From Thermodesulfobacteriota bacterium (GTDB lineage Bacteria > Desulfobacterota > Binatia > Bin18), in NCBI GenBank assembly GCA_964291405.2, contig OZ219926.1, positions 704,001 to 768,000 on the forward strand: a DNA stretch of 64,000 nt, read 5' to 3'. The notes under the pieces were generated by a model, which was given only the letters and a program-made list of their open reading frames with translations, was not told the DNA's origin and did no database searches. A program made the position numbers and the translations under genes. Below are positions 11,407 to 31,837 of the stretch, one piece after another; position 1 is the first letter of the stretch, and every line of letters begins with the position of its first letter.

Positions 11407-11949
11407 TTAGTGCGCATGCGCCGGCTGCTTCTTCTTTTGCTTCCCCTGTCCGTGGCGGTGGGAATGGGTATGGTCGTGCGCCTGCCCTTTTGTCTGTGCG
11501 TGTCCGTGGAGCCGGAAGTTGGTGTCATGACTGTGCGTGTGTCCGTAGTCATGATCATGCCCGTGCGTCGCCGGTGCATAGGTGGGCTGTTTGAGCCCAC
11601 GCTGCTTGCGGACTTCCTTGGCCCGAGCAACGGAGTCGTCAAACTGGTTGCCCTTGCCCGCGGCGTGCGCGGCAAAACGTTTAACCGAATACTCATCCAT
11701 GTGGCAGGACAGCGGGATTTGCGAGTGCTGCATACACAAAGGTCGTGGGTCACGCGAGTTCTTGCGCGAGGCGGCCACCGGATCATAGGGTTCCCCGCTC
11801 ACGCCATGAGAAATGGCAAAAGAGGAAACGATCCGGGGAGCCTTTCTGCCACAGTCCGGACAAGGCTTTTTCGTCTGCGCCTCACCCAGGGAGCAGAGTT
11901 CTTCAAAGACGATGTCACAGGGCGGGCAGTGGTATTCGTAGAGTGGCAT
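11407..11949 (-). CDS. FmdB-family zinc-ribbon protein with His-rich C-terminal tail
   Basis: MPLYEYHCPPC...CPDCG N-terminus; HGHDHDYGHTHSHD...HDHTHSHRHG tail. Confidence 0.8.
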   Translation of the reverse strand: MPLYEYHCPPCDIVFEELCSLGEAQTKKPCPDCGRKAPRIVSSFAISHGVSGEPYDPVAASRKNSRDPRPLCMQHSQIPLSCHMDEYSVKRFAAHAAGKGNQFDDSVARAKEVRKQRGLKQPTYAPATHGHDHDYGHTHSHDTNFRLHGHAQTKGQAHDHTHSHRHGQGKQKKKQPAHAH

Positions 11950-11977
11950 GCTGACATATCCTCTTTACCTCATGGCT

Positions 11978-12763
11978 TTACTCAATGGCGGTTGGTGCGT
12001 GGGGCAGCTCATCCCAGTCTTCCGGATCGTGCGAGATCCAGACCGTACACTCGTGCAGATCCCGAATAGCCCGTAGGCGTTGGATGGATAACGACGAAGT
12101 CGCGGGGTCGGTGTCCAGCGGCATCCCGGACAGAGTGTTGAATTGCTCACGCAGGTGGAGCGTGTCGCCGACCAGGAGGATGGAACGATTCGGCAGACGG
12201 ACATGTAGGGAGCTTTCCCCAGGAGTATGCCCCGGAGTTTTCAGCATATGCAGGCTGCCGTCCCCGAAAATATCAAAGTCGCCGTTGAGCTCAAGCCACT
12301 GAAAACCCCGTGTGGGAACGATATCCTTGAACACAAACACGTCGCGCAGGTGGGGCTCCGGCCAGTAGGCGTAACGCAACTCGTCCTTCATGATGATGAA
12401 GGTCGCGTTGGGGAAGGCGTGCATATAGCCCGTGTGGTCGAGGTGTAGATGGGAGAGCAGGACATACTTGATGTCCGACATCTTGTAGCCGAGCGCCTGA
12501 ATCTGCCGGTCGAGCAGCATCTCCTTGGGATACGAAACCTGAAGATGCTCGGCAAACGGCCCCCAGTGCGCAACCGGGTCATCCGCCACCGCGGGGTGGC
12601 AGCCGGTGTCGAACAGAACCAGGCCCTTCTCATGTTCAATCAGATAGGCCGGACAGGGTATGGTCACCAAATCCGGGGCACCGCCGTGCATCAGCAACGC
12701 TTGCGGAACGGTCAGTTCCGCGTTCGGCAATGCCCACATACGCCGCGCTTTTCCATCCGCCAT
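11978..12763 (-). CDS. Metallo-beta-lactamase fold hydrolase, N-acyl homoserine lactonase family
   Basis: SHLHLDHTG (HxHxDH), TPGHTPG, GD and SHD motifs. Confidence 0.85.
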   Translation of the reverse strand: MADGKARRMWALPNAELTVPQALLMHGGAPDLVTIPCPAYLIEHEKGLVLFDTGCHPAVADDPVAHWGPFAEHLQVSYPKEMLLDRQIQALGYKMSDIKYVLLSHLHLDHTGYMHAFPNATFIIMKDELRYAYWPEPHLRDVFVFKDIVPTRGFQWLELNGDFDIFGDGSLHMLKTPGHTPGESSLHVRLPNRSILLVGDTLHLREQFNTLSGMPLDTDPATSSLSIQRLRAIRDLHECTVWISHDPEDWDELPHAPTAIE

Positions 12764-12882
12764 AAAACCCTCCTGTTTTTGTCGGAAAGCCCTGTTGGAA
12801 ACCTGCTCGAAACCGTTGAACGCATCCTAGGCCATGCCTGTTCGCTGTGTCAAACACAGCATCCTCGCCCACCTACCTTAAA

Positions 12883-13593
12883 TTATTTGGTTGCCCTGTG
12901 CTGACGTAGGAGGTTGGCGATTTCCATGTGGCCTGCCCGTGCCGCCCTATGAAGCGCGGTCGCTCCGCGCCAGTCTTGCTCGTCCACATTCGCCCCGTGC
13001 TCCAAGAGAATCCCGACACTTGCCGTGTCGCCTGCTCCTGCCGCCCTGTGGAGCGCGGTTTCTCCGCACCCGGCTTGCGCCTGCACATTCGCTCCGTGTT
13101 CCAGGAGAGCCCTGACAATTTCCGTATGACCACTACCTACCGCCGAATTGAGCGCGGTCCAGCCGCCCTGGTCTTGTACATCCACATCCACGCCGTGTTC
13201 CAGGAGCAGCTTGACGGTGGCCGTGTCGCCCGTTCGTACCGCCTCGTGGAGCGCGGTCCAACCGTCTTTGTCTTGCACGGACGCATCCGCGCCGTGTTCC
13301 AGAAGCACTCTCATACTTGCCGTGTGGTCCTCCCATAGCGCCCAAAGGAACGCGGTCGCCCCGTCCTTGTCCTGCGCATCCACGTCCGCCCCGTGCTCTA
13401 GGAGAATTCTGACGAGGTCTGTCTTGTCCGCCCATGCCGCCCAATGGAGCGCGGTCGCTCCGTCTCCGTCTGGCGTGTTCACATTCGCCCCATTTTCAAG
13501 GAGGCGCTTAACGGTTGCCGCGTCACCCGCCCTTACCACCCTATGGAACGGGGTTGCTCCGTCCGTGGCTTGGGTATGGGTATTTTCGGCCAT
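12883..13593 (-). CDS. Ankyrin repeat protein
   Basis: About seven 33-aa repeats of G-x-T-A-L-H...LLEHGA-D/N-V. Confidence 0.95.
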   Translation of the reverse strand: MAENTHTQATDGATPFHRVVRAGDAATVKRLLENGANVNTPDGDGATALHWAAWADKTDLVRILLEHGADVDAQDKDGATAFLWALWEDHTASMRVLLEHGADASVQDKDGWTALHEAVRTGDTATVKLLLEHGVDVDVQDQGGWTALNSAVGSGHTEIVRALLEHGANVQAQAGCGETALHRAAGAGDTASVGILLEHGANVDEQDWRGATALHRAARAGHMEIANLLRQHRATK

Positions 13594-19495: not shown

Positions 19496-19636
19496 GCGTC
19501 CTCCTTTCTGTCGGATCATTTTTCTTCCCCTGAGGTTTGTAAATATGAAAAAGGACGAAAACGCAAGGGTGACAGTGTATCCAATGGCCACTACAACGAA
19601 TGGAGCCGGACATTGCCGGAAACAAAAGAAAGAAAG

Positions 19637-19711
19637 CGCGCCCTGGAGGATTCGAACCTCCGACCTACAGATTCGTAGTCTGCCGCTCTATCCGGACTGA
19701 GCTAAGGGCGC
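19637..19711 (-). tRNA. tRNA-Arg(ACG)
   Basis: GCGCCCTTAGCTCAG...GCAGA-CTACGAA-TCTGT...GGTTCGAATCC...AGGGCGCG cloverleaf; CCA not encoded. Confidence 0.97.
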
Positions 19712-19792
19712 GCAGGTGGGAAAACGTGGGAACAATTCGGCAGAGCCCCTTCCTTACCACACGTAGGAAGGAAACCGCAACGTCGATCAGAA

Positions 19793-19881
19793 CGGAGAGG
19801 GAGGGATTCGAACCCTCGGTACGCGGTTAAACGTACACTCGCTTAGCAGGCGAGCGCCTTCGACCACTCGGCCACCTCTCC
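19793..19881 (-). tRNA. tRNA-Ser(GCT)
   Basis: GGAGAGGTGGCCGAGTGG...CTCGC-CTGCTAA-GCGAG, long variable arm, GGTTCGAATCC. Confidence 0.97.
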
Positions 19882-19900
19882 GTATCAATGTGAGCTGCCG

Positions 19901-19929
19901 ATAGTATCGATTCCTTCTCCTACGCGCAA
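19901..19929 (-). promoter_or_regulatory. Sigma70-type promoter of the tRNA-Ser/tRNA-Arg pair
   Basis: TTGCGC-17 bp-TACTAT on minus strand. Confidence 0.55.
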
Positions 19930-19971
19930 CGATGCCGCTTTATGTTATCGATAAATCTCTGTACCAGGGTA

Positions 19972-20006
19972 TTGACAATTGAAATTGAAAATGATTTTCA
20001 ATTTCA
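19972..20006 (+). promoter_or_regulatory. Fur-type operator overlapping a promoter
   Basis: TTGACA at 19972-19977, then perfect 27-bp palindrome TGAAATTGAAAAT-G-ATTTTCAATTTCA (19980-20006), matching the TGAAAATnATTTTCA Fur box described for deltaproteobacteria. Confidence 0.85.
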
Positions 20007-20009
20007 TCT

Positions 20010-20258
20010 ATGAACGAAACAGGCCAACCTTCCAAGTCTGTTACCGATGTTCACGTTGTTTATGAATGTCGGTGTCCGTGCGGCAGTCTGTTAGCCAGGC
20101 AGAACACTGACGGCATAGAACTCAAGTGTCGCCGCTGCAAGCGCGTTGTTTTCATCCCCTGGGAGACCCCTTCGACATGGCAGAGTGTCACAACGCAGTC
20201 ACCCGAGGGACAGGCAGAACAATGCGAACCTGGACAAAAAAATGGACGGCCCCAATGA
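20010..20258 (+). CDS. Small zinc-ribbon protein, Mu Com-like
   Basis: CRCPCGSLLAR...IELKCRRCKR pattern. Confidence 0.7.
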   Translation: MNETGQPSKSVTDVHVVYECRCPCGSLLARQNTDGIELKCRRCKRVVFIPWETPSTWQSVTTQSPEGQAEQCEPGQKNGRPQ

Positions 20259-20294
20259 AGCGACCGCCCACGAAAACACCAAGCGAGGTAGAAG

Positions 20295-20756
20295 TTATTT
20301 CACTCGACGAAGCGTGACCTCAGGCTCAACATTTTTCGTTTCCACCATGCCCAGGTACATCTCCAATTCTTCAATGTCCTCCTGCTCCCCTTCGATATGG
20401 TTCTCAAGCATGGAGCGTAGCGCGACATTGCCTTCGGCCAGGGCATGGGCTTCCAGATACGCCTGCATGGCTTCTTTTTCGAGCGCCAAGTCCTGCTGTA
20501 GCATTTCTTCCAGGTCGGTTGACTGGTGCACCGTCGTCCCAATCTCAACTGAGGGGACACCACCCAGGGAAACGATCTTTTGGCCAAACGTATGGGCATG
20601 GGACAGCGCGGTCTTGCTTTGGCCTTCAAAAAAATCAGCAAAAACCTTACGCCACAGACCGTTCACGAGGAGGGCATGCTGCTGGTATTGGAGGGTCGCG
20701 GCGTGTTCAAGGGAAATGGCTTTGTTCAACGCGGTAATAACTTTTTGGGTATCCAT
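20295..20756 (-). CDS. Ferritin-like (bacterioferritin-related) protein
   Basis: LNKAISLE...QY, HA...KIVSLGGVP, EEMLQQDLALE four-helix-bundle motifs; SD AAGGAGG. Confidence 0.88.
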   Translation of the reverse strand: MDTQKVITALNKAISLEHAATLQYQQHALLVNGLWRKVFADFFEGQSKTALSHAHTFGQKIVSLGGVPSVEIGTTVHQSTDLEEMLQQDLALEKEAMQAYLEAHALAEGNVALRSMLENHIEGEQEDIEELEMYLGMVETKNVEPEVTLRRVK

Positions 20757-20802
20757 GAGAGACCTCCTTGGTTACGAAAATTAATCAACCAACGATGAAT
20801 AC

Positions 20803-20831
20803 ACTATACACATCCGCATGACCCTTGTCAA
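20803..20831 (-). promoter_or_regulatory. Sigma70 promoter for ferritin-like gene
   Basis: TTGACA-17 bp-TATAGT on minus strand. Confidence 0.75.
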
Positions 20832-20856
20832 CCCTAAGTTATTGATTTTATTGAGG

Positions 20857-20917
20857 AATTGATTTTGAAAATCGTTTTCAATTAAGTACCGAAACGATTT
20901 TGAAATTCACTTTCAAT
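20857..20917. promoter_or_regulatory. Two Fur-type boxes in divergent intergenic region
   Basis: TTGAAAATCGTTTTCAA (20865-20881) and TTGAAATTCACTTTCAA (20900-20916), each preceded by an extra GATTTT hexamer. Confidence 0.8.
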
Positions 20918-20999
20918 ATGACCCGAATAACGCTCTATAGCCCGGATAACAGACCTACGACAGAGATAATCGAACAGACAAAAAGGAAGGGAGAGACTG

Positions 21000-21236
21000 A
21001 TGAGACACAATGAGAAAGGCGGGCAAGACCTACAGGATCAATTTGCGAAGGTCTTTACCAATGACGCCGGTATTACGGCGCGCGTCTGCCCACAAGGACA
21101 TGTCTATCTTCAGGTGGGACACACCTGCATTTCGTTCCGTAAAGAGCACTTTGTGGACTTGGCTCAGGTCGTCCACGCGGCAGAACGACATATCTTAGAG
21201 ACCAGCTCCCATTGGAGCTCGCACACACAACATTAG
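21000..21236 (+). CDS. Small hypothetical protein, Cys/His-containing (paralogue 1 of 3)
   Basis: Strong SD AGGAAGGGAG; aligns without gaps to 26266-26469 and to the C-terminus of 25797-26201. Confidence 0.75.
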   Translation: MRHNEKGGQDLQDQFAKVFTNDAGITARVCPQGHVYLQVGHTCISFRKEHFVDLAQVVHAAERHILETSSHWSSHTQH

Positions 21237-21365
21237 AGCGCTACGACAATCGACGATGCTGTAACAAAACACTCAACAACCTTCCCTGAGCATACAGCGG
21301 CCCGCGGTCCCAACCCAGAGCCCAGCGCAAAACGCACTCGGGTATCCGTTTCATCGGAGGGTAGA

Positions 21366-21650
21366 ATGTTCCGCGACCCGTTCATTGCTGAAGCTTGGCA
21401 ACTCCGTCACCAAGCAAACCTCGTTCCTTTCCACGTCTTCCTGTCGGCAGCCGTGTGGCTGGAAGAGCGCTATCAGCGTTCCCCATCGGCTCAGACCGCT
21501 CGCAGCATTGCTTTCCACTATTTACTGCTGGCCATGCGTCCGAACTTGGCGTCTGTCCACATGGCTGAGGAGTATGCTGCCCGTGCGGTCCGCTGGCGAG
21601 AACGGGCTGGAGAAGCGTTCACGCCTGAGCAGGCTCTCTTCTTACAATAA
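21366..21650 (+). CDS. Hypothetical helical protein
   Basis: GGAGG SD 6 nt before ATG; no recognised family. Confidence 0.65.
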   Translation: MFRDPFIAEAWQLRHQANLVPFHVFLSAAVWLEERYQRSPSAQTARSIAFHYLLLAMRPNLASVHMAEEYAARAVRWRERAGEAFTPEQALFLQ

Positions 21651-21652
21651 CA

Positions 21653-21835
21653 GTGGGGGGAGTCCTCCTCCCAAGGTCCCTAGAGCGTGTTAGGGACTTC
21701 TGGTAACCTCTTGATTTTAGTATTTTTCACGAGATCGCCCAAGACCACTCTGAGGGAGCTCCTGAATCATCCTCCGAGGAAAATGAATCGCCTAGGGATC
21801 CCTCCTCCCTAGGGACCCCCTCCCTCCTTCTCTTA
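21653..21835 (+). ncRNA. Candidate structured RNA with C-rich anti-SD loop (element 1)
   Basis: Hairpins at 21655-21672 and 21674-21699; CCTAGGGA-[TCCCTCC]-TCCCTAGG (21791-21813) followed by CCCCCTCCCTCCTTCTCTT. Confidence 0.45.
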
Positions 21836-22008
21836 TCGAACGGAGGCGTGAACAGAGACGGGCGAGCAAAACAACGTCGTGCAGAAAAAGGAGCGTACAG
21901 AATGGCTGGGCCGTAACATTTCACCAAGAGTAACGTACCGGGAATCCCGCCAGCTCTGACCGGGCAGGCGGACAACACAACAGCAGACACAAACAAGGAG
22001 CACACAGA

Positions 22009-23673
22009 ATGACCGCATCTCAACCTTTCACCATATCGACTTGGAAATGGCTGCTCGGTCTGAGCGTTTTTTTTCTCGCCCTACTTATCAGCGTGCCGAG
22101 TTTTGCCCGGATTGTCGTGACACTCGAAAATCCAGGCCAGGGAGACACGGCCTCGGGTGTGACCGCGATTTCGGGCTGGACCTATTCGACTGAAGGCGCA
22201 GACGTGACTGTCAAACTGCGTCTGAACGGAGAAACAGGCGAAGAGATCCCGTGCTGTGGTCCACGTGAGGATGTCAAATATGCTCTCTCGGACGCCCCAC
22301 TGGAAACCGGCTTTGGGCTGTTATTCAACTATGGGCGGCTTCCAGCCGGGGTCCATACCGTTGGCGTAGAAGTCAGCGCCGGCGAAGAAATCATGGTCGT
22401 CGATCATGCCGTCACCGTCGTTGTCCCCGCTGATTCTGAATTTCTCAGCGCCGTTGATCTCAGCGGGGCTTCGGCCAGCATTGAGGGGGACAAAATTGTC
22501 GTGAGCGGGGTTGAAGTCACGGATAAAGACAGTGGTGATATGATGACCGTCGATGTCGACCTCAACTATAAGACCGGTCTGCAGTCCTTTCAGGTCACGG
22601 AAGCGCAAGGGCCTGCTGGTGACCTGCATGTAGACGAAATCTTGATGGATGTCGCCCACGCCATTTTCGCCACCTATGACGCCCTGAATATGGCGGCGCA
22701 CGACCCGGATGCGGCGGGCGGCAGAGAGGTGAACGTGGACACCCTGTCCTCAGCAGTCTTTTCCTTGGTCGGGGTAAGTGCTGCTAGCGAGGCTGATGCT
22801 ATTGCCCTGTTGCCCGCCGTCCAACATGCCTGGCGGGATGCGCGTGTCCCCTGGGAGCAGAGCGAGGCGTTTCTGTTCGGGCCGGTGGACACGGACGAAC
22901 ACGACCCCTTCCTGGACACCTGGCCACTTAACGTCACTGACCTCGAAGCCATCATCGCGTCCAACGCTGACATTGATGCCGTCGAGCTTACTGATGACGT
23001 TCAGGGCTTCCATGCCCTGGAATATCTGCTGTTCCAGGATATGAACGGCAACACCGACTCAGCCGCGATTGTGAATGCCCTCCACACCGACCCACGCAGG
23101 AGAGCCTACATGCGGAGGGTGATGGGGGAGTTTACCAATCACACCCAGGCACTTCGCGACAGTTGGGATCCCGATATGGGGAATTTCGTGGCGGAACTTG
23201 CCATGGCTGGCCACGGCAGTCCCCGTATGACCTACGGCAGCGAGAGAGCGGCCATGCAAACGCTGCTCGAAGCCATGATAGGGATTGCTGCCGAGCTGCA
23301 TGACGCCAAACTGGGGGCCTCAAGCCCCGCTGAAGAAGAGTCGCGCTTCAGCAACAACTCCAGGATCGACTTCCTCAACAACGTGCGCAGTATCAACAAC
23401 GTCTATGAGGGCCGTTTTGATCAGAGCGACAGCACCTCGATGGGGGTGACGGATTTTGTCGCCAATAAAAACCCGGCCCTGGACGCGGAGGTCCGAATGG
23501 CAATCCGTGATGCCAAGGCGGCTATCATCGCCATCCCGGAGCCCTTTGGACAGAGCATCACCGCCCATCCCGATGCTGTCGCAAATGCTATCCAAGCCGC
23601 CATGGCATTGGAGACGAAGCTGGTAGAGGTTCTTGACGCTGTCAATGCGGCGGATTTCGGCCACGACCACTAA
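22009..23673 (+). CDS. Imelysin-family iron-regulated protein with N-terminal beta-rich domain
   Basis: Signal peptide; AWRDARVPWEQSEAFLFGP, GFHALEYLLF (GxHxxE), EESRFSNNS motifs. Confidence 0.88.
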   Translation: MTASQPFTISTWKWLLGLSVFFLALLISVPSFARIVVTLENPGQGDTASGVTAISGWTYSTEGADVTVKLRLNGETGEEIPCCGPREDVKYALSDAPLETGFGLLFNYGRLPAGVHTVGVEVSAGEEIMVVDHAVTVVVPADSEFLSAVDLSGASASIEGDKIVVSGVEVTDKDSGDMMTVDVDLNYKTGLQSFQVTEAQGPAGDLHVDEILMDVAHAIFATYDALNMAAHDPDAAGGREVNVDTLSSAVFSLVGVSAASEADAIALLPAVQHAWRDARVPWEQSEAFLFGPVDTDEHDPFLDTWPLNVTDLEAIIASNADIDAVELTDDVQGFHALEYLLFQDMNGNTDSAAIVNALHTDPRRRAYMRRVMGEFTNHTQALRDSWDPDMGNFVAELAMAGHGSPRMTYGSERAAMQTLLEAMIGIAAELHDAKLGASSPAEEESRFSNNSRIDFLNNVRSINNVYEGRFDQSDSTSMGVTDFVANKNPALDAEVRMAIRDAKAAIIAIPEPFGQSITAHPDAVANAIQAAMALETKLVEVLDAVNAADFGHDH

Positions 23674-23756
23674 CCGCACGATTGCAGGACCAATGAGCCG
23701 GAGTGGGGTGATCCCGCTCCGGCTACCAAGACAGGGCCTCACATTGGGAACAGTTC

Positions 23757-25640
23757 ATGCAGAAACCTCGCTTTGTCGTCTTCACCCTCACGTTGGTCAC
23801 CCTGTGTGTCTCCGTCTTCTTCCGGCATTCCTCGGCCTGGGCCACTATTACCGCGACCCTGGAAAACCCGCCCGACGGAGAACACATGTCCGGCATTCAT
23901 ACCATCTCGGGCTGGGCGTATAGCGATACGGGCGCGCCGGTCAGTGTCCGGCTGCGCATTGACGGCGAACTCCGGGAAACGATTCCGTGTTGCGGGGAAC
24001 GCAACGATGTTCAGGCCGTTTTTCCGGACGCCCCTTTGGCCACATCTTTCAGTTTGTTGTTCAATTACGGCCGGCTCAGCGCCGGGGTACATATCATTGG
24101 AATTGAGGTCCAGGCCGCTGGTGAGACCACAGTGGTTCTGGATCACGCTGTGGCGGTCGTCAAACCGGGGGACGTGGAGTTTGTGGAGACGATGGATATG
24201 ACGGCCGCCACTGTCCGCATTGAGGACAACGAGCTGCTGATAGCCGATGCGCTTGTCGAGCATATCCCGACTGACCTGCGTCTCAAATATGCCACCAGCC
24301 TCCAATCGCCGCTCCTCGTTGAAGCCAGGCCGAGCGGAGCCGATGGCAGCCAGAGCGCGGCCCTGGCCGGCGGAGCCACCACGCTTTTTGATGCCTCCAG
24401 CCAGGCGTTTGAGATGCCGGCACCGAATCTTGAGGGGGCACGGCTGGATAAGCATCTGGCTGGAGATGTCGCTTTTGGAGATAGTTTTGTCACCGCTCCT
24501 GCTCCGATCTTCAGCGGGCTGGGACCCATCTTCAATAATACTGCCTGCGATAGCTGCCATCCAAAAAACGGCCGCGGACGACCGCCGCGAGACGGCGAAC
24601 GCATGGCCTCCATGTTTCTTCGGGTCAGCCTGCCCGGCACCGATCCCTTGACGGGCGGTCCTCTGGCGGTCCCCGGTATGGGCACGCAGTTCCAGCACCT
24701 GGCCAACTTTGGAGTGCCGCCCGAAGGCGATGTTGTTATCAGCGAAGAGTTCAGCGACGGCATGTTTGGCGCTGGCGAGGCGTTTGAGTTGCGCCGTCTG
24801 CACTTTCAGATCGAGAATCCCGCCCAGCCGATTCCGGATACGGTTCTCACTTCACCACGGGTGGCTCTGCCAGTCTTTGGGCGGGGTCTGCTTGAAGCGA
24901 TTGATGAGGACACGATTCTCGGCTTAGCGGACGAGGACGACGCGGACGGCGATGGCATCTCGGGTCGGCCCAATTGGGTCTGGGACGTGGTGCGGCAGCG
25001 AACAGCGCTCGGACGCTTTGGCTGGAAGGCCAATAATCCAACCCTCTTGCAGCAAACCTTTACCGCCTACAACCAGGACATGGGCGTGACCAACCCCTTC
25101 CTTCCCCAAGAAAGCGCATTTGGTCAGATCCAGGATGACGGCTTGGCGGATGACCCTGAGATTGATCTGGAAACGGTTGATGTCGCCACTTTTTATATCC
25201 AGACACTCGCCGTGCCCGCCCGCCGCAACCTCGACGATCCGCAGGTACAGCAGGGAGAAGACCTCTTTCATGAGGCGCAGTGCACGGGCTGTCATATTCC
25301 CACTATCCGAACCGGCGTCTTAGCCGGGGTGCCGGAAGTGTCCAACCAGACCATTCATCCCTACACCGACCTGCTCCTGCACGACATGGGAGACGGCCTG
25401 GCGGATGGCCGGCCGGATTTTGTCGCAACCGGCCGGGAATGGCGGACACCGCCGTTGTGGGGCATCGGCCTGACCCTGCGCGCCCAAGGTCACACCCTGT
25501 TCCTGCACGATGGTCGGGCGCGCAATCTCACAGAGGCCATTCTGTGGCATGGCGGAGAAGCCGAAGCCGCCCGGGAGGCTTTCCGCCTGATGACCCTGGG
25601 CGAGCGCGAGGCATTATTCACCTTTCTGGAGTCGCTATAG
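23757..25640 (+). CDS. Di-haem oxidoreductase family (DHOR) protein with the same N-terminal domain
   Basis: Two CxxCH (CDSCH, CTGCH), GLGPIFN, DGDGISGRPN, GRFGWKA, TDLLLHDMG, EWRTPPLWGIG, LHDGRAR. Confidence 0.92.
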   Translation: MQKPRFVVFTLTLVTLCVSVFFRHSSAWATITATLENPPDGEHMSGIHTISGWAYSDTGAPVSVRLRIDGELRETIPCCGERNDVQAVFPDAPLATSFSLLFNYGRLSAGVHIIGIEVQAAGETTVVLDHAVAVVKPGDVEFVETMDMTAATVRIEDNELLIADALVEHIPTDLRLKYATSLQSPLLVEARPSGADGSQSAALAGGATTLFDASSQAFEMPAPNLEGARLDKHLAGDVAFGDSFVTAPAPIFSGLGPIFNNTACDSCHPKNGRGRPPRDGERMASMFLRVSLPGTDPLTGGPLAVPGMGTQFQHLANFGVPPEGDVVISEEFSDGMFGAGEAFELRRLHFQIENPAQPIPDTVLTSPRVALPVFGRGLLEAIDEDTILGLADEDDADGDGISGRPNWVWDVVRQRTALGRFGWKANNPTLLQQTFTAYNQDMGVTNPFLPQESAFGQIQDDGLADDPEIDLETVDVATFYIQTLAVPARRNLDDPQVQQGEDLFHEAQCTGCHIPTIRTGVLAGVPEVSNQTIHPYTDLLLHDMGDGLADGRPDFVATGREWRTPPLWGIGLTLRAQGHTLFLHDGRARNLTEAILWHGGEAEAAREAFRLMTLGEREALFTFLESL

Positions 25641-25691
25641 AGGTCAACATGCAGCGAACAAGCGCGCCACATATCTATGGAATATCAAGTT

Positions 25692-25765
25692 GCAGGGGGG
25701 AGGCTGCCTTCCCTGCCGCAGGCCCTGGGGTTTTCCTACCCCAACCCTGGGGCCTGCTCCCCTCG
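25692..25765 (+). ncRNA. Candidate structured RNA with C-rich loop (element 2)
   Basis: GGGGGGAG hairpin, then 15-bp stem 25718-25732/25743-25757 (two G-U pairs) closing loop TTCCTACCCC, followed by TCCCCTC. Confidence 0.45.
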
Positions 25766-25796
25766 GGCTGACATTTCGGACTAAATGAGGATTAGT

Positions 25797-26201
25797 ATGG
25801 TACGAAAAAGCGTATCCTCCCGCAGACGGCAGACTGGCTATCTCAGCGCCCGTGCCATGCTCTTGCTCTCCGAATACAGCCTGATCGTCTTTCTCTTGTG
25901 GGCGGTCGCTGTCGAGCAGACCAAATCCACCCGGCCATCAGTTGGTCAGCGACCCGGAGCCGCAGAGAGGTCGCTGAGCAGCGTAGCCTATGCAGCTCTC
26001 CCGTCCCATTTATCGCCGGCACAACACATGCCCACACAGTGGCAATGTCAGCCGGCTGAAATCTCTGGGCAACTTCATGGCGTGCCCCAGGTTGATCTGT
26101 GTCCCGACCCTGGCGTGCCCATCCAAATCGGCATGCTCCGTTTACACGTCTGTCAGCGCGACTTTTTTCAGATAGCCCAGGCTATTAGCAGCCGTGGCTG
26201 A
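25797..26201 (+). CDS. Hypothetical protein, one hydrophobic segment plus C-terminal small-paralogue domain (2 of 3)
   Basis: GAGGA SD before ATG 25797; C-terminal VDLCPDPGVPIQIGMLRLHVCQRDFFQIAQAI aligns with neighbours. Confidence 0.55.
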   Translation: MVRKSVSSRRRQTGYLSARAMLLLSEYSLIVFLLWAVAVEQTKSTRPSVGQRPGAAERSLSSVAYAALPSHLSPAQHMPTQWQCQPAEISGQLHGVPQVDLCPDPGVPIQIGMLRLHVCQRDFFQIAQAISSRG

Positions 26202-26265
26202 AACAGCGACACCGCTGAACAAAACAAACCCGGACCATGGTCCCCAAGAATAAAGGAGAACGAGT

Positions 26266-26469
26266 ATGTATGACACGCACCTATGGCAAACGCCGGATAA
26301 ACGCATCACTGTTTCTTTGTGTTCCGAAGGCTGTCTTCATGTCATGGTGGGCCGGGCCATCATTAAAATGACCCCGGAAGAATTCTTTGCTCTACAAACC
26401 GTGGTAGCCAAGGCGGCCCAGGATTTGCGGAATTCGCCCGTCCCCCAGCAAGACTCGGTAGGCCATTAA
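26266..26469 (+). CDS. Small hypothetical protein (paralogue 3 of 3)
   Basis: AAGGAG SD; ITVSLCSEGCLHVMVGRAIIKMTPEEFFAL. Confidence 0.78.
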   Translation: MYDTHLWQTPDKRITVSLCSEGCLHVMVGRAIIKMTPEEFFALQTVVAKAAQDLRNSPVPQQDSVGH

Positions 26470-26543
26470 GAGCGGTGATACGCTCGGAAGCGATCTACAG
26501 GCCCCAATAACCAACGATATCCGTCAGAATAGGGTCAGTGCGT

Positions 26544-27302
26544 TCAAATCAATCTCGGCAATATGGCGCGCCGTTGCAAAGGATAATTCTCAAACGTCTC
26601 ATGATACCATGCGTGGCGCCAGAGTGCCCTCGGCACCATGTTTGCAATCGTCCACAGGGCAAACGCGAGGCCCGGCAGCGACCAGCTCAACAGTGCGAAG
26701 CCGACCCATTCGATTATTTCGCCCAGCAGATTGGGGCACGACACGAGATTGAAAACACCGCCGCGGGGAATGACGTATTTGCCATCGTTATCCATACGCA
26801 ATCGCCGGAGACGATAGTCAGACCAGATATTTAACATGCCCCCGCTTATTGCCAACGTCAGACCGATGGCAAATCGCGGGTCAGTCACCCAATCGTTGGC
26901 ATACTCGGCGATGTATCCCATAGACCATCCCCATAAGCCGCCATTGAGTACATTGAAAACTATGCCGGACACGCACAGCATGACTCGCATCTTGCTATCG
27001 CGTCGTGGAACAATCCACGGCCATATCAGCGCTCGATGGGTGTAGTGCGCGACCCACAGAGCGACCACTGTATTGCCGACAAAATGGTGGTGCGGACTGA
27101 AAAAGTATATGCCCGGGAAGGTAAGTAGCGCGGGCGCCTCCATTACAAACCAACCCCAGCGGCTGTTGATACGAGGCCCGATACCTGTGCCCCCAACGCG
27201 CTCCACCGGGTCCCACTTCATCAAACCCGCGATCAGTACCAACGGCGACAGCCCCACCCAAATCCCGGCGAGGATCTCAAATGAGGGAAATTCCCCGCTC
27301 AC
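26544..27302 (-). CDS. Steroid 5-alpha-reductase family (3-oxo-5-alpha-steroid 4-dehydrogenase-like) membrane protein
   Basis: GWFVMEAP, HYTHRALIWP, YVIPRGGVFNLVSCPNLLGEIIEWVGFA, PRALWRHAWY; GTGA overlap with upstream stop. Confidence 0.9.
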   Translation of the reverse strand: MSGEFPSFEILAGIWVGLSPLVLIAGLMKWDPVERVGGTGIGPRINSRWGWFVMEAPALLTFPGIYFFSPHHHFVGNTVVALWVAHYTHRALIWPWIVPRRDSKMRVMLCVSGIVFNVLNGGLWGWSMGYIAEYANDWVTDPRFAIGLTLAISGGMLNIWSDYRLRRLRMDNDGKYVIPRGGVFNLVSCPNLLGEIIEWVGFALLSWSLPGLAFALWTIANMVPRALWRHAWYHETFENYPLQRRAILPRLI

Positions 27303-28360
27303 AAATACATGCCTTGCTCTTTGAACCAATTGAGGGCATCGCGGATCGATTCTTCAAGTGGTCGAGATTCGTATCCCAATTGTCTCCTCGCCGAGGACTC
27401 ATCAACAGACACCGGACAGTCGCGCAAAAGGTCAAGCGAATTTCTGGAGTAAAGAGGTGGTCGATTTTTTATCGCGGCATACAGTTGAACAAAAGGCAAA
27501 CCCGCCAGGGCCAGAAAATAGGGCATGGCGGGGCGCGTCACACGACGCCCCAGAATGTGGGAACACAGACGCGCTAGTTCAATAATCTTTGCGTATCGGC
27601 CCACGGTAAAATACACCTCGCCATGACATTCGCTCTGCCCCACCGCATTTGCGGCAGCGGCCGCCACATCTCGCATATCGCTCCACCAGAATCCCTCGTC
27701 AATGAGACATGGCAACCGCTTTTGCGCGATGGCGAGCAACATGTCACCAACGAGGGTCGGCTGCGTATCGCCGGGACCTATAAGACTCGAAGGACAGATA
27801 ACAGAGGCATTAATCCGACCACTCCTCGCCGCTTCGAGCACGCTGCTATGCGCTTCGGCTTTTGTAGCCGTATAGGGGATTTTGGAATGCTGTCCCGGCT
27901 TTGAATCAGCGTCTAAAACCCGTCCACGCAACGGGCTGAATGCGTGTATGGAACCGATGTGCACCAGCCTGCGTACGCCGTTGTCAACACACGCTTTAAT
28001 CACGTTTCGGGTACCCGTCAGGTTGACCGCCCTGACCAAATCCTCGGGATCGGTGCCAATCGTCACCATCGCAGCATTGTGTACGACGGCATCAGTATTT
28101 TGGAATGCCAAGTTCAACGATTCGACATTTCGAATATCCGCAGGCCACAATTCGACCCGCTTGTTCAGGTCATCGGGGAATTTGCGACTGCTGCCCTGAC
28201 GCGTAACAGCACGTACCGTATACCCACACCGCAGCAAGGCGCGGCATATATGGCTCCCGAGAAAACCCGCAGCACCGGTCACGGCAACGAGGCGTTTGGT
28301 GTCTTTAGGACCGTATGCCTTGTCGTTGGAATCGGACATCACCCATTCCTCAGTTATCAT
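27299..28360 (-). CDS. NAD-dependent epimerase/dehydratase (HpnA/dihydroflavonol reductase-like)
   Basis: VTGAAGFLG, VNLTGTRNV, YTATK. Confidence 0.88.
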   Translation of the reverse strand: MITEEWVMSDSNDKAYGPKDTKRLVAVTGAAGFLGSHICRALLRCGYTVRAVTRQGSSRKFPDDLNKRVELWPADIRNVESLNLAFQNTDAVVHNAAMVTIGTDPEDLVRAVNLTGTRNVIKACVDNGVRRLVHIGSIHAFSPLRGRVLDADSKPGQHSKIPYTATKAEAHSSVLEAARSGRINASVICPSSLIGPGDTQPTLVGDMLLAIAQKRLPCLIDEGFWWSDMRDVAAAAANAVGQSECHGEVYFTVGRYAKIIELARLCSHILGRRVTRPAMPYFLALAGLPFVQLYAAIKNRPPLYSRNSLDLLRDCPVSVDESSARRQLGYESRPLEESIRDALNWFKEQGMYL

Positions 28361-28534
28361 TGGTGGCGCTATTGGCCAATTCCAGGACGAGTGTCACTCC
28401 CTACGCCTTTCTCCAGACCGTGCAACACGAAGACTTGCACCGACAAATCCTCTATCCACTTGTGAACGCGTAAAAAATCTCTTCAGTGAACCTCGACATG
28501 CTACAGTATCCGTTTCAATATCCTTCGTCACTTG

Positions 28535-28692
28535 AAAAGACGAGAGCCCTTCAGGGCCAACCTCGCCGGCTGCTCCGCTGTTGGAAATGCAGAGTGGCGG
28601 TCCGGCCGGTCCTAGGTCTGTAGGGAGAAGCCCCGGGGCGGTAGGAGGGATGCCCCGGGGCCGGATGCAAGGTCCAACACCAAACCTTGCAT
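28535..28692 (-). ncRNA. Candidate structured RNA with anti-SD loop (element 3)
   Basis: Consecutive hairpins on minus strand, including GCCCCGGGGC-[ATCCCTCCTACC]-GCCCCGGGGC; G-U pairs form only on the minus strand; ends in GCCC-TGAA-GGGC plus pyrimidine tract. Confidence 0.5.
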
Positions 28693-28733
28693 AGCGAAAA
28701 CGACGAACCTGCGGCCTGTATGCTACCTTGCAC

Positions 28734-28765
28734 AAAAAAGCCCGCAGCGACGACTACTGCGGGCT
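28734..28765 (-). terminator. Intrinsic terminator
   Basis: AGCCCGCAG-9 nt-CTGCGGGC then TTTTTT on minus strand. Confidence 0.8.
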
Positions 28766-28799
28766 CGAGGCTCAAAGGCCGTGGGCCGGGTACGGATTC

Positions 28800-28860
28800 A
28801 ATTGAAATTGATATTCAATTTCAATTATGCACTTCTAGCCTTCGAGACGATATTTGTCAA
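28800..28860 (-). promoter_or_regulatory. Sigma70 promoter with Fur-type box at the predicted start site
   Basis: TTGACA-17 bp-TAGAAG, followed by palindrome AATTGAAATTGA-NNN-TCAATTTCAATT (28800-28826); core matches GATAATGATAATCATTATC at 14/19. Confidence 0.75.
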
Positions 28861-28922
28861 GTGCTGCAGTCAAGGGAATGTAGGTAGGGATATGGAGAAT
28901 GGCGTTTCTACCGAAAGAATGG

Positions 28923-29141
28923 CTACTTAGGCACCGGTACAGGCGCGCGCTCCTCTGCCTGAAAGCCCGCTTCTATGTGGCTGCCGTCACAGTACGGCTT
29001 GTTTTTGGACTTGCCACACCGACATAAATACAGTGGGTCTTTTTGTCCCCGGTACTTCCCCCCTCTCCTGTCGGTGAGACTGGTTTCTCCGCGCACTTCA
29101 TAGGGACCGTTCTTTAAGGCGCGGATGATCACTTTTGCCAT
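28923..29141 (-). CDS. CDGSH iron-sulfur domain protein
   Basis: NGPYEV...LCRCGKSKNKPYCDGSH. Confidence 0.93.
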   Translation of the reverse strand: MAKVIIRALKNGPYEVRGETSLTDRRGGKYRGQKDPLYLCRCGKSKNKPYCDGSHIEAGFQAEERAPVPVPK

Positions 29142-29266
29142 ACAGGTCGCTTTCTTTTTGGCATTCTTGGAGCCACGCTATCATTCACGAGAATACGCGC
29201 TAGGGCGGTTCTACCCCCAGCCGAGGGCGCTTTGGAATCGAACCAGAGTTCGACAGGGCTTGTTTC

Positions 29267-29293
29267 TATAATTGAAATTGACTATCAATTTCA
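29267..29293 (+). promoter_or_regulatory. -10 box plus Fur-type operator of feo operon
   Basis: TATAAT immediately followed by TGAAATTGA-CTA-TCAATTTCA. Confidence 0.82.
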
Positions 29294-29349
29294 GCTAGGA
29301 AGAGAAATCGGGCCTACCTGAACGAAATCCCCATACTTCTACGTATCTT

Positions 29350-29577
29350 ATGAAAACACTAGCCGACCTCGGCCCCGAAGAGCAGGGACGTATTCACTCC
29401 ATCACGGGCACAGACGGCATTTCCCAGCGGCTGGCTGAACTCGGCTTTACCAGCGGTCAGACCGTGCGGGTCATCCGTTTTGCGCCGTTGGGTGATCCCA
29501 TGCAAATACGTATCCGAGGCTTTTCCCTCGCGCTCCGGCTCCATGAGGCCAAACGGGTCCATCTTGCCGAACAATAA
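29350..29577 (+). CDS. feoA: Ferrous iron transport protein A
   Basis: RLAELGF...APLGDPMQIRIRGFSLALR. Confidence 0.95.
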   Translation: MKTLADLGPEEQGRIHSITGTDGISQRLAELGFTSGQTVRVIRFAPLGDPMQIRIRGFSLALRLHEAKRVHLAEQ

Positions 29578-29602
29578 AAATGAGGAGTAGGCTACCTAGT
29601 AC

Positions 29603-31837
29603 GTGCCTCGCCCTGTCGCTATGGATGTCGAAACACCAGTTGCTTCGTCTGCTCGTACCGCCACCGCCCCCGATATCGCTTCTTATCGGGTTGCGGTGAT
29701 TGGGAATCCCAATACGGGCAAGACAACCCTCTTTAACGCCCTCACCGGACTCAGCCAACACACCGGTAATTACCCTGGAGTGACAGTCGAGAGCGCGCTC
29801 GGCGAGTTTCGTCAGAATGGCGTGCGGTTTCTCGCGGTTGACCTGCCGGGTGTTTATTCGCTGGCGCCCCGCGCTCCGGATGAGATGGTCGCCGTCTCTG
29901 TCCTGCTCGGCTCCGGCGACGAATCAGTCACACCGGATGTTGTCCTGTGCGTGGTCGATGCGACGAACCTCGATCGCAATCTGTATATTGTGACCCAGAT
30001 CATGGATATCGGGCTTCCCTGCGTCATCGCGCTGACCATGCTCGATCTGGCGGAAAAGCAGGGCATGCATATCGATATTGCTACCCTTGAAAAACGTCTG
30101 GGAGTGCGCGTTGTCCCGGTGCAGGCCACAAAACGTCGAGGGATCGATCAACTCCGTCAGACCCTGTGCGATACGCTCAACGCAGGCGTCTCCCCTTCCC
30201 GCCCTGTTGTGTTTCCCGAAGCGTTCACACAAGAGGCCCAGACGCTGGCCCAGCAACTCACCCAAGCTCATCCGACTGCCCGCTTCCCTCGCTTTCTGAT
30301 TGAACGGCTGCTGATCGACACCGGTGGCATGGTTGAGCGGGACCTCACCCGACAGCACGGAGAGCAAGTACGTGACTCCGTCCGCGCGGCTCGCCAGCGT
30401 TTAGCCGCTGACGCGGTCCAGCTCCCGCAGATGGAAGTGGATCACCGCTATGCATGGATCGCCCAGGTCGTGGCGGACGCGCGTCGCTCTTCGTCCAGCC
30501 TGGGCCGTGACCGGACCGATTGGTCCGAGCTGATTGACTCCCTCGTCACCCATAAAGTCTGGGGGCTGGTGATTTTTCTGACGGTTATGGGCGTGACCTT
30601 TCAGTCGATTTTTTCCTGGGCGCTCCCCCTTATGGACAGCATTGACACCGTCTTTTCGGCACTGGGCCCCTGGGTCGGCAGCGCGCTGCCCGAGGGTCCG
30701 CTGCAAAGCCTGATGGTCGATGGCGTAATCGGCGGAGTGGGTGCGGTTGTGGTGTTTGTCCCGCAGATTGCGATTCTGTTCGGTTTGATCGCCATCCTTG
30801 AAGATTCCGGCTATATGGCGCGAGCAGCCTTTCTCATGGATCGGGTGATGGCCGGCTTTGGACTGTCGGGGCGGAGCTTTATTCCGCTGCTCTCCTCTTT
30901 CGCCTGTGCGATTCCGGGCATTATGGCAACTCGAACGATCGATAATCAGCGTGACCGGATTGCGACCATTCTTATCGCGCCCCTGATGAGCTGTAGCGCA
31001 CGGCTACCCGTATATGTGCTGTTGATCGCGGCTTTTATCCCGGCTCAGACCGTGTGGGGCATTTTTGGCTTGCAGGGGCTGACGCTCTTTTGCATGTATT
31101 GTCTCGGCCTGTTTGTTGCCCCTCCCGTTGCCTGGATACTCAAGCGGACGCTGCTGAGCGGCGAGGCCGTGCCTTTTCTCATGGAACTGCCGCCCTTTAA
31201 GCTGCCGGCCTGGCGGGTGGTCGTGTTTCGTATGTACGACCGTAGCATGGCCTTTCTCAAGCGTGCCGGCAGCATCATCCTGGCCACGACGATCCTGGTC
31301 TGGGCCCTCTCCTATTATCCGAATCAGGATCTCGTCTCAGAGGAATTTGAGACCCGCCGGGCAACTGCCACGGAAGCCGAGTTGGCGCTGCTTGAGACTG
31401 AGGCGGCCGGCATTCGCTTACGTGAAAGTTATCTCGGACAGGCCGGACGAGCGATTGAACCGTTTGTTCAGCCCTTAGGCTGGGACTGGAAAATCGGCAT
31501 GGCCACGCTGGCGAGTTTTCCGGCTCGTGAGGTGATTATTGCCGCCCTCGGGACGATCTATAATCTGGGTGCCGGTCAGGATGAAGAGAGCGTCGAATTG
31601 CGCCAAGCCATGCGGGCGGAGCGCTGGCCGGATGGCCGACCGGTGTACACACCGGTTGTGGCGATTTCAATCATGGTCTTTTTTGCCCTGTGCTGTCAGT
31701 GCGGAGCCACCTTGGCGACCATCAAGCGGGAAACTAATTCCTGGGGCTATCCGCTCTTGACGTTTGTCTATATGACGGGTCTGGCGTATCTTGGAGCGCT
31801 GGCGGTGTATCAAATAGGCAGCCGGCTGATTGGGTAA
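29603..31837 (+). CDS. feoB: Ferrous iron transport protein B
   Basis: GNPNTGKTTLFN, NYPGVTVE, DLPGVYSL, EDSGYMAR, PLMSCSARLP; start could be ATG 29621. Confidence 0.97.
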   Translation: MPRPVAMDVETPVASSARTATAPDIASYRVAVIGNPNTGKTTLFNALTGLSQHTGNYPGVTVESALGEFRQNGVRFLAVDLPGVYSLAPRAPDEMVAVSVLLGSGDESVTPDVVLCVVDATNLDRNLYIVTQIMDIGLPCVIALTMLDLAEKQGMHIDIATLEKRLGVRVVPVQATKRRGIDQLRQTLCDTLNAGVSPSRPVVFPEAFTQEAQTLAQQLTQAHPTARFPRFLIERLLIDTGGMVERDLTRQHGEQVRDSVRAARQRLAADAVQLPQMEVDHRYAWIAQVVADARRSSSSLGRDRTDWSELIDSLVTHKVWGLVIFLTVMGVTFQSIFSWALPLMDSIDTVFSALGPWVGSALPEGPLQSLMVDGVIGGVGAVVVFVPQIAILFGLIAILEDSGYMARAAFLMDRVMAGFGLSGRSFIPLLSSFACAIPGIMATRTIDNQRDRIATILIAPLMSCSARLPVYVLLIAAFIPAQTVWGIFGLQGLTLFCMYCLGLFVAPPVAWILKRTLLSGEAVPFLMELPPFKLPAWRVVVFRMYDRSMAFLKRAGSIILATTILVWALSYYPNQDLVSEEFETRRATATEAELALLETEAAGIRLRESYLGQAGRAIEPFVQPLGWDWKIGMATLASFPAREVIIAALGTIYNLGAGQDEESVELRQAMRAERWPDGRPVYTPVVAISIMVFFALCCQCGATLATIKRETNSWGYPLLTFVYMTGLAYLGALAVYQIGSRLIG

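Follow-up and report, generated by a model that had tools for sequence, protein, structure and literature searches.

A module shared by two exported proteins

In the 64,000-nucleotide stretch of contig OZ219926.1 analysed here (hereafter the window; positions 704,001 to 768,000 of the contig in assembly GCA_964291405.2, a Thermodesulfobacteriota bacterium of the GTDB lineage Binatia), two adjacent genes encode an imelysin-like protein (P0001) and a di-haem protein of the DHOR family (P0002), and both proteins begin with the same module of about 165 residues containing a Cys-Cys pair. The sharing is real and far beyond chance: BLASTP aligns the two proteins over their N-termini only (98 of 226 residues identical, 43%; E 1e-47), and within the module (residues 35-200 of P0001 and 31-190 of P0002) 81 of 159 aligned residues, or 51%, are identical, with 56% identity in the coding DNA. 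The module is very probably a divergent Big_7 Ig-like domain of about 105 residues, in which Cys-Cys has taken the place of Tyr-Gly, followed by a beta sub-domain of about 60 residues. As to its role, we tentatively favour the reading that the modules pair, both in cis (where two stand in tandem) and in trans (imelysin with DHOR), with the Cys-Cys as a vicinal disulfide, a proposal that we would sooner expect to fail than to hold. The features of the gene pair, all on the + strand, are as follows.

22009..23673, +: predicted exported imelysin with N-terminal module (P0001, 554 aa; open reading frame, Pfam Peptidase_M75)
22009..22107, +: imelysin signal peptide (residues 1-33, ending SFA before R; sequence reading and orthologue comparison)
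22111..22425 (boundary approximate), +: imelysin module sub-domain 1, probable divergent Big_7-type Ig-like sandwich (AlphaFold2 strands 2-103; profile positions ~3-105 matched by Big_7 repeats; Big_7 clusters nearest in the Atlas)
22252..22257, +: Cys82-Cys83, the sole cysteines of P0001
22426..22608, +: imelysin module sub-domain 2, ~60-residue beta unit without a named family (AlphaFold2 strands 112-165; no Pfam or NCBIfam match)
23005..23022, +: GxHxxE motif of the imelysin domain (GFHALE, residues 333-338; motif as defined in excerpts of PMC3143127)
23757..25640, +: predicted exported di-haem DHOR protein with N-terminal module (P0002, 627 aa; open reading frame, Pfam DHOR)
23757..23843, +: DHOR signal peptide (residues 1-29, ending AWA before T; sequence reading and orthologue comparison)
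23847..24164 (boundary approximate), +: DHOR module sub-domain 1, Big_7-like (sub-threshold Big_7 match; alignment A3)
23988..23993, +: Cys78-Cys79 of P0002 (sequence reading)
24165..24326, +: DHOR module sub-domain 2 (alignment A3; profile coordinates)
24546..24560, +: first CxxCH haem-binding motif, CDSCH (residues 264-268; sequence reading)
25281..25295, +: second CxxCH haem-binding motif, CTGCH (residues 509-513; sequence reading)

The two open reading frames lie on the same strand with a gap of 83 bp, and the + strand between them has no terminator-like site. Residues 265-538 of P0001 match the Pfam imelysin/Peptidase_M75 family (PF09375) at 176 bits against a cut-off of 23.5 and contain the GxHxxE motif, which identifies a GxHxxE-type imelysin, while residues 202-627 of P0002 match DHOR (PF06537) at 356 bits against a cut-off of 22 and hold two CxxCH haem-c motifs, so that haem binding is predicted. 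The first ~200 residues of both proteins go unnamed by Pfam and NCBIfam, save for one sub-threshold Big_7 match. Besides the Cys-Cys, mature P0002 has only four cysteines, all in the two CxxCH motifs. A previous sequence-only reading of the window had described the shared N-terminal domain with its vicinal Cys-Cys, judged it 40-50% identical by eye and placed the copies at 22111-~22605 and 23847-~24326; the computed identities bear out the estimate, profile searching sets the boundaries at 22111-22608 and 23847-24326, and the Cys-Cys is invariant in all 20 aligned modules from the window and the fetched loci.

Both proteins are predicted from their sequences to be exported by ordinary signal peptidase I signal peptides, and the mature module begins one residue past the AxA-type cleavage site in every case compared. 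A bacterial lipobox, the mark of lipoproteins such as PIBO, IPPA and ICMP, follows the pattern [LVI][ASTVI][GAS]C and closes the signal peptide. P0001 has no Cys before residue 82, and since its signal peptide is thus free of cysteine, the imelysin is not a lipoprotein; the single candidate in P0002, Cys17 within the signal peptide, lies in the context V-T-L-C, which is non-canonical and varies among DHOR orthologues. Lipoprotein anchoring was therefore rejected, a canonical lipobox being absent from both proteins, as the sequence-only reading had also noted, and from their orthologues.

Fold and family of the module

Given a 20-sequence alignment of modules from the window and the locus DNA (A3), AlphaFold2 predicts an all-beta module (predicted local distance difference test, pLDDT, 86.6; predicted template modelling score, pTM, 0.71) with strands at 2-103 and 112-165 and a short helix straight after the Cys-Cys. 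The beta fold proposed earlier is thus recovered, in fact as two beta sub-domains, and the model has the character of an Ig-like beta-sandwich. Foldseek searches of the PDB with the single module gave generic Ig-like, FN3 and E-set matches only, two of them at E<=1e-3 (the best being 6tn6, E 6.7e-4, template modelling score, TM, 0.47), and no specific family emerged from searches with either the single module or a tandem protein. Sequence searches of the PDB gave matches at E>1 only for the single module and matches at chance level (E 0.56 and 0.67) for the 20-sequence profile, and sub-domain 2 alone found no usable match in the Atlas.

The family assignment comes from relatives. The nearest ESM-Atlas clusters to the module are Big_7 (score 0.97). 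Neither module of the window reaches the Big_7 (PF17957) gathering cut-off of 24.1 bits: residues 32-76 of P0002 score 13.5 bits (E 0.12), and P0001 has no Big_7 match. However, Cys-Cys modules of relatives pass it (P0064, 47.0 bits; P0069, 44.2; P0097, 42.3; P0182, 27.5), Big_7 matches the module in 10 of 56 scanned tandem proteins, and the module profile in turn retrieves Big_7 repeat proteins. Membership of the window's modules is thus a matter of transitive homology, because homologous Cys-Cys modules pass the cut-off and the window copies do not.

Column statistics were taken from 428 aligned segments, which, with 8 intermediate ones set aside, divide into 196 full modules and 224 Big_7 repeats. 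Arg52 is present in 187 of the 196 and in all 224, respectively, Asp54 in 187 and 222, and His82 in 175 and 202; Pro8 and Val55 are likewise common to both. At profile columns 48-49, 175 of the 196 full modules have Cys-Cys, whereas the Big_7 repeats have Tyr (140 of 224) and Gly (174 of 224). The signature derived here from the 224 repeats (P8, sGWa, DG, YG..RpDV, G.H) is found in the window's modules (P8, G22-W23, R52, D54, V55, H82) except that Y48-G49 reads C-C. The module's first ~105 residues therefore share with Big_7 the pattern ..SG...vsGWa....v.v.vDG......RpDV.....G.H.. and a predicted Ig-like sandwich, and differ from it in the Cys-Cys, in the extra beta sub-domain of ~60 residues and in occurring as one or two copies rather than arrays of 4-8. 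P0102 has Tyr-Gly in its first module and Cys-Cys in its second, and P0098 has one Cys-Cys among two modules, which indicates that the two residue pairs are interchangeable and that a Cys-Cys needs no partner Cys-Cys. Obligatory disulfides between the two Cys-Cys pairs of a tandem are unlikely for the same reason, as each of these proteins combines one Cys-Cys module with one that lacks it.

Distribution, copy number and fusion partners

An exhaustive HMMER search of 1.84 billion representatives with the A3 profile matched 4236 proteins at E<=1e-3, 1808 at E<=1e-10 and 310 at E<=1e-30. Architectures were counted in 148 of the best 150 of these 4236, two single-module imelysins (P0024 and P0048), also retrieved by a word-indexed search, being set aside.

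Exactly two full modules in tandem: 77/148
One full module: 22/148
One full module with a truncated second piece: 9/148
N-terminal ~100 residues only, in 4-8 repeats, without Cys-Cys: 40/148

None of the 148 has full modules in arrays longer than two. The 77 tandem pairs are C-terminal in 41 cases, N-terminal in 24 and elsewhere in 12, with a linker of 27-68 aa in 76 of them, and 21 of the 22 single modules begin at residues 17-47, the exception (P0158) being a truncated pair. The repeats of the N-terminal half are Pfam Big_7 and stand on amidases, glucosaminidases, S8 peptidases and similar proteins. Among 56 scanned tandem-pair proteins, the partners include YNCE/lactonase propellers, SBBP/DUF7948, sortilin/BNR, beta-helix, leucine-rich repeat (LRR), cadherin-like/Big_9/Big_12, M23 peptidase, GSDH, FG-GAP and other domains, and 14 have no family. 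In the 22 single-module proteins, Pfam finds CHRD in seven, Lcl_C, DHOR, DUF4397, PSCyt1 and a weak cytochrome c match in one each, Big_7 on the module itself in one, and no family in nine. A word-indexed search with the imelysin module gave 47 imelysins, 1 DHOR and 2 CHRD proteins among the 50 matches listed. These architectures point to a widespread accessory unit of secreted proteins and to a large, unnamed Big_7 sub-family, characterised by Cys-Cys for Tyr-Gly, the 60-residue extension and a strict copy number of one or two, which Pfam currently misses or detects marginally. The sequence-only reading had called the domain lineage-specific, a view that has to be given up, since its first half is a divergent Big_7 with 4236 representatives matched and many unrelated fusion partners.

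Such a distribution could also be that of a co-localising anchor, in which the modules would bind one and the same constituent of the envelope (an outer-membrane protein, peptidoglycan, exopolysaccharide or an S-layer) and so keep the imelysin and DHOR in one place without direct contact, and the vicinal disulfide would offer a flat, non-polar platform for a sugar ring. The parent Big_7 domains stand in arrays on cell-wall amidases, glucosaminidases and S8 peptidases, and the tandem-pair partners (beta-propellers, beta-helix, LRR and cadherin-like domains) are typical of surface or adhesin-type proteins. Excerpts of a chitinase paper count Big_7 among carbohydrate-binding domains, untested there (PMC8950537), and in the SusD protein Bt1762 a vicinal disulfide makes a non-polar surface that contacts sugar, according to excerpts of PMC7782687, a precedent that keeps ligand binding alive. 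In addition, the Foldseek matches include Ig-like modules of glycan-binding proteins and glycosidases (6e57, 6tn6, 3pdd), though these are generic. Nevertheless, neither Pfam, nor Foldseek with the best match quoted above, nor the PDB sequence searches gave a specific match to a defined carbohydrate-binding family, and a strict copy number of one or two is unusual for binders that rely on avidity. We consider an anchor of this kind rather unlikely.

The partners of the single modules bear on another possibility, namely that the Cys-Cys, perhaps aided by acidic residues and the invariant His82, is a ligand for Fe or Cu or switches between the dithiol and disulfide states, and would so feed electrons or metal to the attached domain. 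These partners are metal- or haem-centred (imelysin, di-haem DHOR and PSCyt1- or cytochrome-c-like tails), and 7 of 24 singles have, on inspection, a PSCyt1-like tail that bears a C-x(2-5)-CH motif; the partner met most often in the scan is a CHRD domain with an AHIH motif; the Cys-Cys is near-invariant; the locus is iron-themed (ferritin, CDGSH, FeoAB); and EfeO has an N-terminal metal-binding cupredoxin ahead of its imelysin domain, according to excerpts of PMC3143127. On the other hand, His82, Arg52, Asp54 and Glu/Asp6 are also present in the Big_7 repeats that lack Cys-Cys, which makes them features of the fold and leaves no site specific to the Cys-Cys, and Tyr-Gly, with which the Cys-Cys is interchangeable, has no redox or ligand chemistry. 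Moreover, the Cys-Cys module also stands on LRR, cadherin-like and beta-helix domains without known metal or redox chemistry, and neither Pfam nor NCBIfam finds similarity to cupredoxin or thiol-oxidoreductase families. A redox or metal site thus seems distinctly improbable. As a separate observation, the PSCyt1-like tails of four single-module proteins (P0146, P0153, P0172 and P0173) have presumed haem motifs running from C-x3-CH to C-x5-CH rather than CxxCH.

Conservation and history of the fusions in Binatia

A locus scan with a five-sequence module alignment, taking one genome per species, yielded 29 loci, of which 19 belong to 'Candidatus Binatia' and 10 to Pseudomonadota-type metagenome-assembled genomes or isolates at 28-46% identity. 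A profile search of all open reading frames in these loci finds the gene pair with the module on both genes in L001-L009 and L011-L017. The pair is also present in L010, where the imelysin is cut by the contig end, and in L022, where the DHOR gene is split into two open reading frames. In L015, three consecutive genes, for two imelysins and a DHOR, all carry the module (Pfam-checked). Judged on the 29 fetched loci, the imelysin and DHOR fusions look restricted to Binatia (18 loci and the window). Profile searching, as the sequence-only reading had proposed, gives a divided answer, in that the fusion partners at large are varied and not bound to a lineage while this particular fusion appears to be. 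The first half of the module falls within the catalogued Big_7 family, yet open-access papers and bioRxiv yielded no description of the module on an imelysin or DHOR, nor of a Cys-Cys variant of Big_7.

In a 42-module tree, from which we omitted L001 (near-identical to the window), the truncated imelysin of L010 and the split DHOR of L022, all 18 imelysin-borne modules form one group (Shimodaira-Hasegawa-like approximate likelihood ratio test, SH-aLRT, 93) and the 17 DHOR-borne modules are compatible with one group, so that rows sort by host protein and not by genome. This sorting indicates that each fusion predates the divergence of the sampled Binatia and that both copies have long been kept independently; nothing suggests concerted evolution. 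The same clustering, together with the 51% protein and 56% DNA identity, led us to reject a recent duplication, or a gene conversion, linking the two genes. The Binatia imelysin and DHOR modules, together with those of L018 (CHRD) and L020, form one clade against five proteobacterial modules. In a 120-row FastTree phylogeny, the window's modules lie in a 33-row clade (support 99) of single-module proteins only, comprising 8 imelysin modules, 6 DHOR modules and 19 other singles; the copies of tandem pairs fall outside it, with first and second copies largely separated from one another. The window's two copies thus belong to a sub-clade that is always single at the mature N-terminus.

This history bears on the most modest explanation, by which the module is a passive add-on: a stabilising or spacer Ig-like domain without a specific partner, the product of an early domain duplication in Binatia, kept for folding or protease resistance in the periplasm. 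The single clade of Binatia imelysin and DHOR modules with L018 and L020 would fit a local duplication, accessory domains of the Ig-like type are very common and in many cases lack an assigned role, and the structure-search matches are all generic Ig, FN3 or E-set domains. However, the core motifs and the Cys-Cys are strongly conserved over 18 genomes on both genes (29 of 166 columns invariant in alignment A4 and 57 of 160 in A5), and a spacer would hardly call for the fixed mature N-terminal position of 21 of the 22 singles or for the one-or-two copy rule. We regard a merely passive role as unlikely.

Several further observations concern individual loci. In L022 (10667-12602), the two DHOR pieces measure 82 and 557 aa; the break, which is due to a frameshift or to misassembly, falls at profile positions 38-46 of the module, immediately ahead of the Cys-Cys. 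In L015 (7082-15739), the trio is followed by a 956-aa protein with cadherin-like and Calx-beta matches and two Big_7-like half-modules that lack Cys-Cys. The imelysin module of L001 is 100% identical to that of the window, and its DHOR (11640-13529) has a different signal peptide and 629 aa against the window's 627; the window thus comes from a close relative of the L001 genome and is not the same sequence. Two types of DHOR signal peptide occur among these genomes.

Proposed pairing of the modules

In the reading that we tentatively favour, the module is a pairing unit. Most relatives have two copies in tandem on one chain, and these would pack against each other. In the window, each of two presumably co-transcribed partners has one copy; the copies would associate in trans and so join the iron-binding imelysin and its haem partner into a heterodimer, located in the periplasm or at the cell surface. 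The Cys-Cys would most likely form a vicinal disulfide that replaces the bulky Tyr-Gly structurally, rather than a catalytic or metal site. An intramodule vicinal disulfide fits because P0001 has no other cysteine, because Cys-Cys and Tyr-Gly are interchangeable and because P0098 and P0102 are mixed. The one-or-two copy number, the fixed mature N-terminus of the singles and the near-invariant Cys-Cys argue for a specific role over that of a spacer. The broader form of the proposal, that the Cys-Cys module is a dedicated extracytoplasmic pairing device, acting within the chain (in cis) in hundreds of surface proteins with tandem pairs and between chains (in trans) at the Binatia iron locus, we hold to be doubtful.

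Two structure predictions are consistent with pairing. For P0083, which consists of a signal peptide and two modules only, the predicted pTM is 0.75 with 72 of 433 residues disordered, and we infer that this value is near the ceiling, which could be attained only if both modules are rigidly placed. Complex prediction between the modules of the imelysin (alignment of 18 rows) and the DHOR (17 rows) returned 'weak support' at a score of 0.51. The three runs scored 0.85, 0.51 and 0.22, and the best of 3 controls scored 0.00; contacts agree between the runs to at least 37%, and the partner pLDDT is 72 or higher. Among solved complexes, 116 of 157 reach this mark, as do 2 of 215 mismatched pairs; with a score of 0.60 or below, only 18 of the 157 and both of the passing mismatches do so. 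The suggestion of the sequence-only reading that the module assembles both partners is to that extent weakly supported by computation. In addition, the copy number of full modules (one or two, against 4-8 for the Big_7 repeats without Cys-Cys) and the retention of modules on both genes in Binatia loci, and on all three genes in L015, would be in keeping with pairing.

Several points weigh against this reading. The tool's own calibration implies that, unless there is a good prior, a weak pass will be wrong more often than not. The complex prediction reported no interface, and both chains are Ig-like domains homologous to each other, of a kind that models are prone to place side by side. The argument from the pTM of P0083 is indirect and its alignment has 10 rows only. 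The ratio of pairs to singles is no census, because a top-150 ranking favours two-module proteins, whose scores add. Furthermore, L018 (CHRD), L019 (Lcl_C) and L020 (unknown) have no second module-bearing gene within the locus, so that trans pairing with a neighbour is not general and these proteins would homodimerise or be monomers. Finally, the disulfide is read from the sequence of the Cys-Cys and not from an oxidation state.

Comparison with known systems

The pair can be set beside three known systems. According to excerpts of PMC3143127, the P. aeruginosa operon PA4370-PA4373 pairs imelysins with a di-haem protein, and the solved imelysins PIBO and IPPA, of 384 and 389 aa, are lipoproteins that lack any additional domain, in line with the earlier statement that known imelysins lack this module. 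The window resembles these in that a GxHxxE imelysin adjoins a di-haem protein in a locus with iron genes, and differs in that its partners have signal peptidase I signal peptides and the 165-aa module, and in that the window has no second (IPPA-type) imelysin.

EfeO of the EfeUOB iron transporter, as described in excerpts of PMC3143127, combines an N-terminal cupredoxin with a C-terminal imelysin/M75 domain and has a haem peroxidase-like partner. An exported imelysin domain behind an extra N-terminal beta-sandwich, a context of iron uptake and a haem partner are common to both systems, but the N-terminal domain in the window is not a cupredoxin and the haem partner is a DHOR with the same module. 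P0001 scores 14.2 bits against the NCBIfam EfeO cut-off of 270 and shows no cupredoxin in a Pfam scan, on which grounds an EfeO-type cupredoxin identity was rejected, and neither an EfeU/FTR1 permease nor a DyP-type EfeB is among the annotated genes between 16.4 and 33.3 kb.

The E-set domain of sulfite oxidase/dehydrogenase (Mo-co_dimer) mediates homodimerisation. It gives the tightest Foldseek superpositions on sub-domain 1 (2ca3_A, 2blf_A and 3r18; TM 0.46-0.48, root-mean-square deviation 2.7-4.0 A over ~120 columns), though at 12-13% identity and E 2.6e-3 or weaker, a likeness at the level of the fold that is common to many Ig-like domains and no evidence of common function. It may thus serve pairing as an analogue of how such a module could work.

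The surrounding iron locus

The gene pair lies among iron-related genes, whose neighbourhood was compared over 18 loci (the window, L002-L017 and L022, with L001 omitted as a near-copy).

20295..20756, -: ferritin-like gene (Pfam Ferritin, E 1.1e-22), kept beside the pair in 16/18 Binatia loci
28923..29141, -: gene for a small CDGSH iron-sulfur protein, opposite in strand to feoA and just upstream of it (Pfam zf-CDGSH, E 1e-17), in 14/18 loci
29350..31837, +: feoA (29350-29577) and feoB (29603-31837), ferrous iron transporter (Pfam FeoA, FeoB_N/Gate/FeoB_C), in 16/18 loci

Between the ferritin and imelysin genes, small open reading frames at 21000-21236 (+, 78 aa) and 21366-21650 (+, 94 aa) recur in 15 and 13 of the 18 loci, respectively; these putative genes have no Pfam family. 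Off the iron theme, genes for a steroid 5-alpha-reductase-like membrane protein and an NAD-dependent epimerase/3-beta-hydroxysteroid dehydrogenase-like protein (26544-28360, -) stand between DHOR and feoAB. Two tRNA genes, at 19637-19711 (-) and 19793-19881 (-), lie just upstream of the iron locus (68.5 and 63.7 bits in Rfam), and a search of 19500-30000 with Rfam gave nothing else above threshold.

A 15-bp palindrome, TGAAAWYNRWTTTCA, has five copies in the window at one mismatch or fewer, against 0.09 expected, at 19986-20000, 20866-20880, 20901-20915, 28803-28817 and 28809-28823. Every copy falls within the iron locus: some lie around the ferritin gene, and the others stand upstream of feoA, between the genes for the epimerase and the CDGSH protein. 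Of the 29 fetched loci, 12 contain it without a mismatch, in most cases 1-2 kb upstream of the imelysin. The palindrome is a candidate Fur-family operator; the classical Fur-box consensus has 0 matches at three mismatches or fewer.

Implications

Many bacteria have neighbouring genes for an imelysin-like protein and a DHOR di-haem protein. Both proteins are linked to iron uptake, but the nature of their cooperation is not understood, and excerpts of PMC3143127 describe the biochemical function as unknown. The Big_7 family was already known; what is new is a Cys-Cys sub-family of it with an extension, and its presence on an imelysin-DHOR pair. If the module is a passive Ig-like add-on, the pair would be a case of ordinary domain shuffling. 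If instead the modules do pair, their presence on both partners would amount to a natural experiment that points to a direct imelysin-DHOR complex and supplies a testable pair, it would be the first structural sign of a physical heterodimer between imelysin and DHOR, and the module could be a portable dimerisation tag for periplasmic proteins. The main value of the finding lies in this concrete and testable hint of a physical imelysin-DHOR complex.

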